From a virus (lineage: Duplodnaviria > Caudoviricetes), in IMG/VR virus record IMGVR_UViG_3300031414_000007, positions 64,001-128,000 of that record: a DNA stretch of 64,000 bases; one strand, written 5' to 3'. Below, piece after piece: positions 8,562-34,110 of this stretch. Each line of letters begins with the position of its first letter. Positions within the stretch are counted from its first letter, which is position 1. Made by a program: the position numbers and the translations under genes. Below the pieces are notes generated by a model. The model worked only from the letters and a program-made list of their open reading frames with translations, made no database searches and was not told the DNA's origin.

Positions 8562-8570
8562 AAATTAGCG
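8562..8570 (-). promoter_or_regulatory. Candidate late promoter motif CGCTAATTT
   Basis: Intergenic copy of a motif found at six exact intergenic sites; 36 nt upstream of the ATG. Confidence 0.6.
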
Positions 8571-21699: not shown

Positions 21700-21708
21700 A
21701 AATTAGCG
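21700..21708 (-). promoter_or_regulatory. Candidate late promoter motif CGCTAATTT
   Basis: Lies just after a terminator and 27 nt upstream of the ATG at 21673. Confidence 0.65.
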
Positions 21709-28466: not shown

Positions 28467-28489
28467 GTTAATTCTCCTCTGTTAGGCAC

Positions 28490-28498
28490 AAATTAGCT
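28490..28498 (-). promoter_or_regulatory. Candidate late promoter motif AGCTAATTT
   Basis: Between the terminator at 28516 and the PAAR start (24 nt upstream). Confidence 0.65.
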
Positions 28499-28509
28499 TG
28501 TTATGCAGT

Positions 28510-29770
28510 AGAAACGAAAACGGGCAACCCGAAGGCCGCCCGTTTTCTTTGCTTGGATTTGTGTCGCTTAACTCCCTCACACCCGAAGCGAGTGCTCGGT
28601 AGCCGAAGCCACTAAGCCGGAGTTAATGGCCGAGAGTGAAGCCGCACGGCGCGGCAACAGCATGTGACTCTCGGGACCAGATAGCAAGCGACCAAGCATC
28701 GCAATTGCTATCAACGACACGAAGAACAAAATCATGTTTGCTCCTGTGTCTCTACTGTAAGGTAAAACATTTGCAAATGTCGATCAAGTTACTTCAAGTT
28801 GCCCTTCGCCCAACTTCACTAGGGTTTCAACTCTCTTTCTCTCGTTACCGCCTGGGTTGCGGAGACCGCGCACAAGAACAACGCTTCAACGATACGTGGG
28901 CAGGAAGACACGTACCGTATTCACATCGCTCAAGCGAAGGAGGTTACCCATCGGTGATCTGCGGTGGTTAATACACTCTTTAACAATCGCTCTTGTTGTG
29001 CATTAGATCGTGGTAGGAACGCGATTGACCGCTAACAAGTCCTATACGATATTTCACTACCCGAGAATGGGTATCAGCTATGGCAGCACGTCAACAGCAG
29101 CGGGGCAGCGGACACACTCCATTAAGCATTGTTAAGGGCAATGCTCAACAGGCTGTGAACAGCTTTGACCAAATGCAGAGTCGCTCGTCGCCCGACTTCA
29201 CTTGAGTATCTCGTCTGCACTCTTTTACTCCCTGAATACCGTACAAGGAAGACGGCACCCATGAGGGTCTGCGGATGTTTATCACATTAAGACTCTAGCC
29301 AACTTAATCCCGTACGCAGTGTGTTGAGTCGTCCGCTGGATGACACACTACATACCCCCTCACGTTCGTGCATAAGTGGGATATAGCTGGTGGAAGGTTG
29401 TCATGAAGATTGCATCGCCTGGAGGCCTGCCGTTCTTCCCAATGCACACACGGTGAAAGGCATATGTGCATCAGGCAGCGTAGCTGCAAACTGCTATCCC
29501 GATAAGAGGGGCCACAACGTTGAGAGTACGTTCCGCCTGTCTTACGCGCCTAGAGGCAACTGCCGTGCCATGTCTGAAAAGAATGAAAAACGCTGGGCCT
29601 TGTGAGCGTCAGCAGCAGAGCAGCAGTCTATCGCGTGGGTGCTGGGGTTAATCCTCACGATTACAGAGCATCACACTCTAACCAGCTGGAGGCTTGCCTA
29701 CTGTGGAACGCAGCGACAAGTTTACAGTCAAACAACGTCCGCTAAGTACGCCATCTGACTGGGACAAGTT
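28510..29770 (-). ncRNA. Candidate large structured non-coding RNA (~1.25 kb), family unassigned
   Basis: The only long ORF-free gap in the window. Seven 9-13 bp helices carry 14 G-U pairs that all fit the minus strand; two internal cUUCGg hairpins; multiway junction near the 3' end; ends in a terminator. Confidence 0.7.
28516..28547 (-). terminator. Rho-independent terminator with cUUCGg loop
   Basis: Minus strand GAAAACGGGCGGCC-TTCG-GGTTGCCCGTTTTC then GTTTC; two G-U pairs fix the strand. Confidence 0.85.
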
Positions 29771-29803
29771 GATATTACTATCTGCAATTTTTATTTACAG
29801 ATT

Positions 29804-31567
29804 TTAGAACGCCTTACGCTCAATATTTGAATAAAGAGTATCGTAAGGTTCTGAGTACAGTTCAGGTCCGCGTTGTGCGCGAATCGTCACGTAGCCTGTG
29901 TGACGGTTGAACGCTGTGATTTCGACAGTCGGCTGTTTAGGCTTGATAGTCGCATAAATCGGAGCATTCAACGTTGGCTCGTCTGTCTGAATCTTATTTA
30001 CAGATTGCAGTGCAGCGCCAGAGATAGCAGGCAGATTAAAACGCAGTTCAGCACGTTTCTGGCCGAATGCCGCGCGAATCATACCGTTCTCCAACTCTAC
30101 ACCGTTCTGCTTGAGATATGCAGCGATGCGACGTCCGATACCAGTAAGCTGATCGCGAGTGCGCGGGTCAAACGTGCCTTCGAAGCTGATTGCTTCTGCT
30201 GGCTGACGTACAGACAAGTGCAGGCCCGTGTTGAAATAGCCTTCGGTAAGCAGACGCAGGATTTCTTTCACGACCTCTTTGGTGTTCGTCTTGATAGCAG
30301 CGATACGCAGCTCAGGAACGTCCACTTTAATCGGGTCACGAAGCTCGGTCTGGTTGTCCATATAGCCGAGTGAGATATGCTTCGCATTGGCATACGTGTG
30401 TTGCAGCACACCAGTCGCGCGAATCAATACAGAGCCACCTTTTGCGAGGTCATAAAGTTCATCGCTGGTGGTTGTGCTGAACAGGTAATAGTCCGTAGGT
30501 ACGGCCATGCGATTAACAGCTTCAATCGCTTTGGTCTGAGCTTCTTTGACAGTTGAGCCAAAGACTACGCGACTACGATTCGGCTGGGCAGCAGATACAG
30601 GGAAAAACGCACCATAGACAACGCTAACGTTTTTCTTAATCGGACGCTCAGACTGAATCTTCTTACCGCCAGGCAGAGACGGTAGCTTAACGCCCACCAG
30701 CTTACCTTTGACGATAGCTTTGTTCTCTTTTACCGGCTTGAGGCTGTCAATGAGTTTCGCCAGATCAGCACCGCTAAGAATCTTCTCCAGCGGAACAGCG
30801 AGGTTCTGCGGCAGATAGTGTTTCTTGCGGAACATATAGATAACGGTGTCTTTCTTGATCTGCACTGGCGTAGCCATGTTGCGACCAACAACACCGACCG
30901 GCTGGAACGTGTTTGCTTTGTCATCACCGATAGAGCCGAACTGCTTAGTGAACTCAGTCTGGCCGATGATGTTAGCAGCACGTAAATGGCCACGAATGAT
31001 GAACACGATTTTCGGGTCATCTTTCATGCGCAACTCGTAGCGGTCACGGTTCAGATAAACCATGCTGTACTTGTCGCCTTTCTCCAGCTCCAGATCGTAC
31101 TCGTCGTTAGCGTCATCAACAACGACTTTCTTACCTACGTAGGTACCGTAAGTGCGCGGGCCAGCAGACTCAGAAGCAATCTGCAATGCTTTGCCACTGT
31201 TAGACAGAGAGGCAGCGAAGTCCATAACAGCGGGCATCAGGTCTAAAGACGATGCTACAGCGTATGGCTTGCGCTTCTCACCAAGATGCAAATGAACAGC
31301 GCTACTGCTGGACATGAATACGGTTGTGCCTACATCTTCGTGTGTACCAGCGAAGTGCATACCGCTAATACGTTCGATGATGTTTGCGTTGAGCGATTGG
31401 AAGTTTACTTCGCTGCCTGCGGTGAAGTCATAAATTTCACCGTTACGCCACGCATAGGCAACGTTGTTTGAGCTTAGACCCACGAACGCATCACCCAACT
31501 GACGCACGGTCAATGGCATGATGCTCAGGTCACGAATAATCGAGGACTGCTTTTGAATGAGGTTCAT
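29804..31567 (-). CDS. Hypothetical protein, probable internal head protein (587 aa)
   Basis: Long ORF; several S-x-S motifs in the N-terminal 140 aa; carries the shared YxG...GD...Y.L...DDP domain. Confidence 0.7.
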   Translation of the reverse strand: MNLIQKQSSIIRDLSIMPLTVRQLGDAFVGLSSNNVAYAWRNGEIYDFTAGSEVNFQSLNANIIERISGMHFAGTHEDVGTTVFMSSSSAVHLHLGEKRKPYAVASSLDLMPAVMDFAASLSNSGKALQIASESAGPRTYGTYVGKKVVVDDANDEYDLELEKGDKYSMVYLNRDRYELRMKDDPKIVFIIRGHLRAANIIGQTEFTKQFGSIGDDKANTFQPVGVVGRNMATPVQIKKDTVIYMFRKKHYLPQNLAVPLEKILSGADLAKLIDSLKPVKENKAIVKGKLVGVKLPSLPGGKKIQSERPIKKNVSVVYGAFFPVSAAQPNRSRVVFGSTVKEAQTKAIEAVNRMAVPTDYYLFSTTTSDELYDLAKGGSVLIRATGVLQHTYANAKHISLGYMDNQTELRDPIKVDVPELRIAAIKTNTKEVVKEILRLLTEGYFNTGLHLSVRQPAEAISFEGTFDPRTRDQLTGIGRRIAAYLKQNGVELENGMIRAAFGQKRAELRFNLPAISGAALQSVNKIQTDEPTLNAPIYATIKPKQPTVEITAFNRHTGYVTIRAQRGPELYSEPYDTLYSNIERKAF

Positions 31568-34101: not shown

Positions 34102-34110
34102 AAATTAGCG
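34102..34110 (-). promoter_or_regulatory. Candidate late promoter motif CGCTAATTT
   Basis: Intergenic; 30 nt upstream of the ATG at 34072. Confidence 0.65.

Follow-up and report, generated by a model that had tools for sequence, protein, structure and literature searches.

The question raised by this locus is what a compact RNA junction is doing at the downstream end of the one large gap in a block of phage genes. The window, by which is meant the whole 64,000-nucleotide stretch that was analysed, comes from an Erwinia jumbo phage (Alexandravirus), and the region is 99.4% identical to pEa_SNUABM_30. Throughout its first 45 kb the genes all lie close-packed on the minus strand, the sole exception being a gap of 1.34 kb (28467-29803, minus strand) that is free of genes except for the small open reading frame (ORF) discussed below and that lies between the gene for a 587-aa protein and that for the PAAR spike tip, the first of a baseplate block downstream. 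The 587-aa protein (29804-31567, minus strand) has a KMPT-N domain (PF20294, E 4e-18) and its own PHROG, phrog_32352; its identity is as low as 42% in Salmondvirus, and it is invariably found just ahead of a promoter-like motif. The gap corresponds to a structured minus-strand RNA of about 1.27 kb, kept in at least 13 phages, for which alifold gave covariation in 150 of 366 predicted pairs, with G-U far more frequent than A-C, and for which Rfam gives no family. The downstream end of the gap is the four-way junction (28555-28725) singled out in an initial annotation, and the module to which it belongs forms the 3' end of the structured RNA. This module is single-copy, its covariance model matching once in the 210-kb genome. 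On balance, the junction is probably a fold acting in cis on the message for a small membrane peptide, gating its translation and protecting it.

The first consideration is whether the junction exists as an RNA structure. The helices listed in the initial annotation are all present where it had placed them, and both the minimum free energy (MFE) and the centroid predictions of ViennaRNA give the same four-way junction (28561-28720) on the minus strand. The 171-nt minus-strand sequence has an MFE of -76.3 kcal/mol (z -4.92), a stability equalled by none of 200 shuffles, and the plus-strand fold is weaker (-63.5 kcal/mol, z -3.9); the sense of the RNA is taken to be minus because the invariant G-U pairs would become A-C on the opposite strand. 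When 13 relatives drawn from Alexandravirus, Sasquatchvirus and one unclassified group were aligned, RNAalifold recovered the junction with compensation in 25 of 59 pairs. An explicit 51-pair structure scored across the same 13 relatives had 93.5% of its cells paired, compared with 32 - 45% when the partners were slid, and both sides had changed in 23 of the 51 pairs, a figure reached by none of 500 shuffles. Extension to 20 sequences from about six genus-level lineages raised the number of pairs with changes on both sides to 37 of 51, in an alignment that was fitted to the covariance model and is therefore biased toward the structure. The compensatory changes among homologues, whose absence the initial annotation had named as counting against its junction, are present in both sets. 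The two cUUCGg hairpins that it also described do occur in this phage and are not a feature of the relatives, in which the first loop may be UUCG, GAAA, GAAG, UAAA or others and the second is a loop of 7 nt.

The closing helix, P1, pairs GUGUCG (28715-28720) with CGACAC (28561-28566) on the minus strand, and five of its six pairs covary among the 20 sequences. Arm A (28680-28712) consists of an 8-bp outer stem, a 5-bp inner stem and a near-invariant loop, AUGCUUGGU, whose nucleotides are invariant in the 13 phages at third codon positions as well as elsewhere, suggesting an RNA-level role beyond translational control. Arm B (28630-28674) has an 8-bp stem and a variable apical hairpin and is 15 nt shorter in four lineages; its stem has been rewritten four times, as CCGAGAG/CUCUCGG, CAAACAG/CUGUUUG, CGGAAC/GUUCUG and GGAAGG/CCUUCC. 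Arm C (28568-28626) is made up of the hairpins C1 (28594-28617) and C2 (28576-28592), the second of which contains the stop codon of the small ORF (28577-28579), and a change of that codon from UGA to UAA is balanced by a C to U change on the opposite side of the C2 stem.

Arm A is further tied to the untranslated tail of the message by a pseudoknot in which UGCUUGG of the arm-A loop (28692-28698) pairs with CCAAGCA (28550-28556), a strand that lies 4 nt past P1 and outside the ORF. In the 13 phages this helix is 100% paired and invariant, and across genera it covaries, with three independent sequence solutions: GCUUGG/CCAAGC of this phage is replaced in Yoloswag by GCUCGG/UUGAGC, in two metagenomic phages by GCUCG/UGAGC and in JA13 and JA29 by GGCAAG/CUUGCC, with a constant geometry in which five loop nucleotides and one stem nucleotide take part. 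Pairing of the arm-A loop with the 5' arm of the downstream terminator was also considered and was rejected, since it consists mainly of G-U wobbles and is not found in this window.

The same nucleotides also carry a coding signal, which the initial annotation had overlooked. A 52-aa ORF (28577-28735, minus strand), preceded by an AGGAG Shine-Dalgarno (SD) sequence, runs across all three arms and stops in C2, so that ORF and junction are co-extensive; near its N-terminus the product has a transmembrane segment (residues ~2-19), after which comes G-R. The ORF is open in all 13 aligned phages, with a start three codons earlier in SNUABM_14, and over 42 codons its frame is without stops in all 20 members, the other two frames having 1 - 4 stops in most of them. 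Insertions and deletions within it are of 3 or 15 nt, multiples of three. In a frame-anchored test of conservation across the gap, other ORFs of at least 28 codons on either strand were broken in most relatives, leaving the small ORF as the sole conserved one. The predicted peptide varies in length from 43 to 78 aa among the relatives, with an N-terminal transmembrane segment throughout, and its first ~19 residues are hydrophobic in all lineages even where the nucleotides differ throughout. The L-G-R of this phage is encoded by CUU GGU CGC and that of Yoloswag by the synonymous CUC GGC AGA, the motif kept across lineages being L-G-(R/K). Some depositors of related genomes have annotated the ORF as a coding sequence and others have left it out. 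Searches with the peptide and its relatives yielded nothing in Pfam (E <= 0.01) or PHROGs (E <= 1) and nothing relevant in NCBIfam (E <= 5), nor did any profile of Hok/Gef or of other named type I toxin families match; a protein database search with the peptide returned only five close relatives, and its ESM Atlas feature scores (0.80) were at chance level.

Conservation of the ORF would be equally expected of an ordinary small protein gene in which RNA structure is incidental, but this is the least credible of the explanations considered. It is strongly disfavoured by the covariation, with 23 - 37 of the 51 pairs changing on both sides; base pairing is preserved at the cost of the amino-acid sequence, and the partners of P1 and the pseudoknot that lie outside the ORF still covary. 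In the C-terminal half of the peptide, which is poorly conserved whilst its codons keep pairing, selection therefore acts on the RNA.

The distribution of the module bears on whether it is a unit in its own right. The covariance model built from the 13-relative alignment was used for searches of genomes and found the module in Rivsvirus SNUABM_5 (52 bits), Yoloswag (42 bits), a Yersinia phage (37 bits) and three IMG/VR contigs, together with weak but syntenic matches in Salmondvirus JA13 and JA29 (15 bits). A pattern scan of IMG/VR yielded 56 loci, of which the covariance model discarded 40 as due to chance. The module is conserved in a set of jumbo phages of Erwinia, Dickeya and Yersinia; in every lineage it comes last ahead of the terminator and lies upstream of the baseplate genes that PAAR opens. 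What precedes it varies: in Yoloswag, SNUABM_5, JA13/JA29 and the Yersinia phage the place of the structured RNA is taken by protein genes, which are homologous between genera. The order in Yoloswag, SNUABM_5, JA13 and JA29 is the 587-aa gene, the promoter-like motif, ~650 nt of non-coding DNA, the protein genes, the small ORF with its junction, the terminator and PAAR. In Yoloswag (L027:4274-4984) a terminator follows the 587-aa gene and is succeeded by CTGTAAATA and then by the ~650 nt of non-coding DNA before the protein genes; this stretch has no blastn similarity to the RNA of the window and may be a diverged or a different leader RNA. The proposal that the junction is an independently folding module is borne out to the extent that, here the 3' end of a long RNA just before a terminator, it is separable in evolution and occurs elsewhere without the large RNA upstream.

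The main rival to the gated-message reading puts the RNA first. It is possible, if doubtful, that the pseudoknotted junction is mainly a functional domain of the ~1.27-kb RNA, perhaps serving as a platform for proteins, as an element of tertiary assembly or as a 3' cap that keeps exonucleases out, and that the ORF is secondary, the RNA being bifunctional in the way of RNAIII/hld. Irrespective of coding, invariance or covariation is seen in the loops, among the junction nucleotides and in the untranslated tail, the C-terminal half of the peptide drifts with the pairs kept, and the remainder of the gap is also covarying RNA (the 150 of 366 pairs noted above). A function at the RNA level alone does not, however, require that a frame with its SD and AUG, and a hydrophobic N-terminus, be kept in all lineages with synonymous changes, and the module persists in genera that have protein genes, rather than the large RNA, upstream of it.

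The case for translational gating turns on the start of the ORF. Single-sequence folds predict a hairpin (28722-28745, minus strand) in which AGGAGCAAA (28737-28745) pairs with UUUGUUCUU (28722-28730), so that the SD (28741-28745) lies within the paired AGGAGCAAA and the AUG (28733-28735) in the hairpin loop. Such folds predict a hairpin burying the ribosome-binding site in all relatives, and in every lineage the SD or the AUG is predicted to be paired through different sequences, as in Yoloswag (CCAGGAGA/UUUUCUGG), the Yersinia phage and JA13. Just upstream of the SD lies the strand GACAC (28746-28750, minus strand), an alternative partner for the 5' strand of P1, and this anti-P1 pairing lengthens the SD hairpin to 14 bp. 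When the 3' strand of P1 was blocked in silico the 5' strand paired upstream in all 13 phages, and pairing of the SD rose from 55 - 82% to 82 - 100%. The two states of P1 differ by between -1.2 and +4.1 kcal/mol in the 13 phages, these energies being nearest-neighbour predictions that ignore the pseudoknot. Compensated variants of the anti-P1 helix are found in Y3, SNUABM_3 and SNUABM_14.

The module (about 28506-28750, minus strand) comprises the SD/AUG hairpin, the 52-codon ORF for a single-pass membrane peptide and the terminator, with the three arms of the junction built from the coding sequence itself. P1 joins codons 6-7 to a strand 11 nt past the stop codon, and the pseudoknot joins codons 13-15, in the arm-A loop, to the untranslated tail. 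The 5' strand of P1 has a choice of partner, downstream pairing closing the junction and upstream pairing lengthening the SD hairpin. A mechanism can be proposed in which, during transcription, the upstream pairing would lock the ribosome-binding site; after synthesis of the 3' strand and the tail, the junction and pseudoknot would close and wrap the ORF compactly beside the terminator hairpin. The closed message would be expected to be nuclease-resistant and poorly translatable, with its 3' end protected, and synthesis of the peptide would be low or delayed until the fold was opened by 3' trimming, by a factor or simply with time. The present data show the fold with its covariation, the pseudoknot, the conserved ORF, the terminator and the predicted bistability; we infer from them that the peptide is made and that the fold limits its translation, and as for the role of the peptide, our guess would be an action on the membrane of the host in late infection.

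The downstream limit of the module is an intrinsic terminator (about 28506-28547, minus strand) with a 14-bp stem, a UUCG loop and a U-tract, which is conserved in the relatives with changes of G-C to G-U. Runs of A and of U lie beside its hairpin on both strands, so that it could stop transcription arriving from either side. Between the terminator and PAAR lies GCTAATTT (28490-28497, minus strand), a recurrent motif that, as (A/C)GCTAATTT, has 14 copies in the genome, 12 of them on the minus strand (e.g. 21700-21707, 34102-34109 and 8562-8569); it is typically found 25 - 40 nt before the start codons of structural genes, often right after a terminator, and from this placement it may represent a second class of phage promoter. 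Its position here implies that the baseplate operon probably has its own transcription start. An additional ORF of ~40 aa is present between the terminator and PAAR in some relatives (L027:6287-6415, L028:6589-6714, L006:567-689, L013:560-688), starting MTRLSDLAKRNYLRML in Yoloswag, and is not found in the window studied here.

The succession of small ORF and terminator directly upstream of a long, close-packed operon, seen in every lineage, is also what would be expected of a leader-peptide attenuator, in which translation of the small ORF sets terminator read-through into the PAAR/baseplate operon. Such an arrangement is highly improbable here. With the 3' arm of the terminator blocked, the 5' arm had no conserved alternative partner in the 13 phages, at a cost of 14 - 24 kcal/mol; the stop codon is 30 nt ahead of the terminator stem; and the promoter-like GCTAATTT intervenes between terminator and PAAR.

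At the other edge of the gap, the 5' end of the ~1.27-kb structured RNA is marked by the promoter-like motif AATCTGTAAATA (29792-29803, minus strand), and a second exact copy is present at 29995-30006 (minus strand), inside the 3' end of the 587-aa gene. The core CTGTAAATA has 24 copies in 210 kb compared with an expectation of ~1.7; its strand tracks gene direction and it often lies 20 - 40 nt upstream of an SD-ATG. To judge from these properties, AATCTGTAAATA/CTGTAAATA is probably a class of phage promoter resembling the T4 late TATAAATA. In Yoloswag another CTGTAAATA is found 43 nt ahead of the start of the small ORF. The corresponding place in the window has a sigma70-like match, TCGACA-18-TACAGT (28754-28783, minus strand; 9 of 12 positions), which is weak evidence for a promoter that might possibly start a stand-alone transcript of ~235 nt at about 28748. 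It is overlapped by a perfect 14-nt palindrome, ACATTTGCAAATGT (28767-28780), that could be an operator and that occurs only in the six closest relatives; in most relatives only a TAnAGT -10-like element is kept at the site. As they are kept only in the closest relatives, the sigma70-like promoter and the palindrome are regarded as a possibility rather than a finding. The module is a separable unit that may also be made as a short transcript.

The initial annotation had envisaged a ribozyme or processing domain released as a small RNA, and a discrete RNA of ~160-210 nt excised from the long transcript would suit the compact multi-helix junction, its pseudoknot and its conserved unpaired nucleotides. 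A short RNA is plausible enough, given the promoter-like element just upstream, weak in this phage and present also in Yoloswag, but transcription would be a simpler source of it than cleavage, and excision by a ribozyme is very unlikely. The search of Rfam and of phage genomes that had been suggested for the junction placed it in no Rfam family and recovered the module in related phages. Rfam covariance models run over the 64 kb gave nothing at gathering scores, and between 28300 and 30000 only three chance-level hits (E 1-6) appeared at E <= 10, none of them, nor any other Rfam match, a self-cleaving ribozyme, so that the ribozyme idea is left without support; ARAGORN found no tRNA or tmRNA gene in the window, and a literature search found no description of the junction RNA or of the peptide. 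A ribozyme would also not explain the coding signal.

The reading of the junction as a gate on translation is weakened by the finding of no antisense promoter and of no family match for the peptide. A motif scan of the plus strand facing the ORF found no sigma70-like or phage-type promoter motif and no antitoxin-like RNA, a scan of this kind being unable to exclude an unrecognised promoter or an RNA encoded in trans. It is, moreover, not obvious why a virulent phage should need an addiction-type toxin. A further proposal, tentative though worth entertaining, is that the module belongs to a new class of bifunctional RNA, in which the junction would act as an RNA, either as a switch for a phage or host factor or as a protective or assembling 3' domain of the kilobase RNA, and would also encode a membrane-active peptide licensed late by the switch, the whole resembling a type I toxin timer without an antisense antitoxin.

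A stretch of ~160 nt is thus under two selections, for a membrane-anchor peptide at the protein level and for a pseudoknotted junction at the RNA level, the latter being kept even at the cost of the C-terminal sequence of the peptide. If the junction does gate translation, it would provide a handle on the unexplained kilobase structured RNA upstream. The small ORF also adds an unannotated conserved gene to the fire-blight and soft-rot phages that are under development for biocontrol.

Several known systems share some of these features. The twister-sister and other self-cleaving ribozymes are likewise compact junctions with tertiary contacts; unlike them, the phage fold has a coding frame through it, no cleavage site that could be inferred and no match at E <= 10. 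GOLLD and ROOL are not, to our knowledge, known to encode a peptide. The phage RNA resembles them as a large, covarying phage or prophage RNA with multi-way junctions and pseudoknots (10.1101/2024.12.08.627333). It differs from both in being without an Rfam match. Structured RNAs that carry a short ORF for a small peptide are represented by RNAIII of S. aureus, which encodes delta-haemolysin, a membrane-active peptide, and by SgrS with SgrT. Translation of RNAIII reportedly lags behind its transcription owing to folding of the RNA. In contrast to RNAIII and SgrS, with which there is no homology, the phage RNA has its ORF at the 3' end, and no other part of the molecule is as structured.

The closest parallels are with type I toxin mRNAs. 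That of hok/sok of plasmid R1 is a message controlled by folding back on itself, as is proposed for the phage module. For the aapA1 and aapA3 mRNAs of H. pylori, it has been found that the full-length fold impedes translation and is relieved by 3' processing, and that metastable SD-sequestering hairpins act co-transcriptionally (PMC5416894, PMC6733600). To judge from its predicted peptide and folds, the phage module shares with aapA1/IsoA1 and aapA3/IsoA3 a hydrophobic peptide of ~30-52 aa and a message closed by pairing of its 5' part with its 3' end, as well as an SD held in hairpins, one of which uses codons of the ORF, and alternative folds that are nearly isoenergetic (PMC5416894, PMC6733600). 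The differences are that neither an antisense antitoxin nor a sequence or family match has been found for the phage module, that its host is a virulent jumbo phage rather than a plasmid or a chromosome, and that its four-way junction with a loop-to-tail pseudoknot spans the whole ORF and ends a kilobase structured RNA. The phage module, which combines a predicted sequestration of the SD with a long-distance 5'-3' interaction, through P1 and the pseudoknot, that covaries, would be no more than a candidate member of the type I toxin-antitoxin systems. If the fold does gate translation, then the fold-back logic of type I systems, here with no antisense partner found, would extend to virulent jumbo phages.
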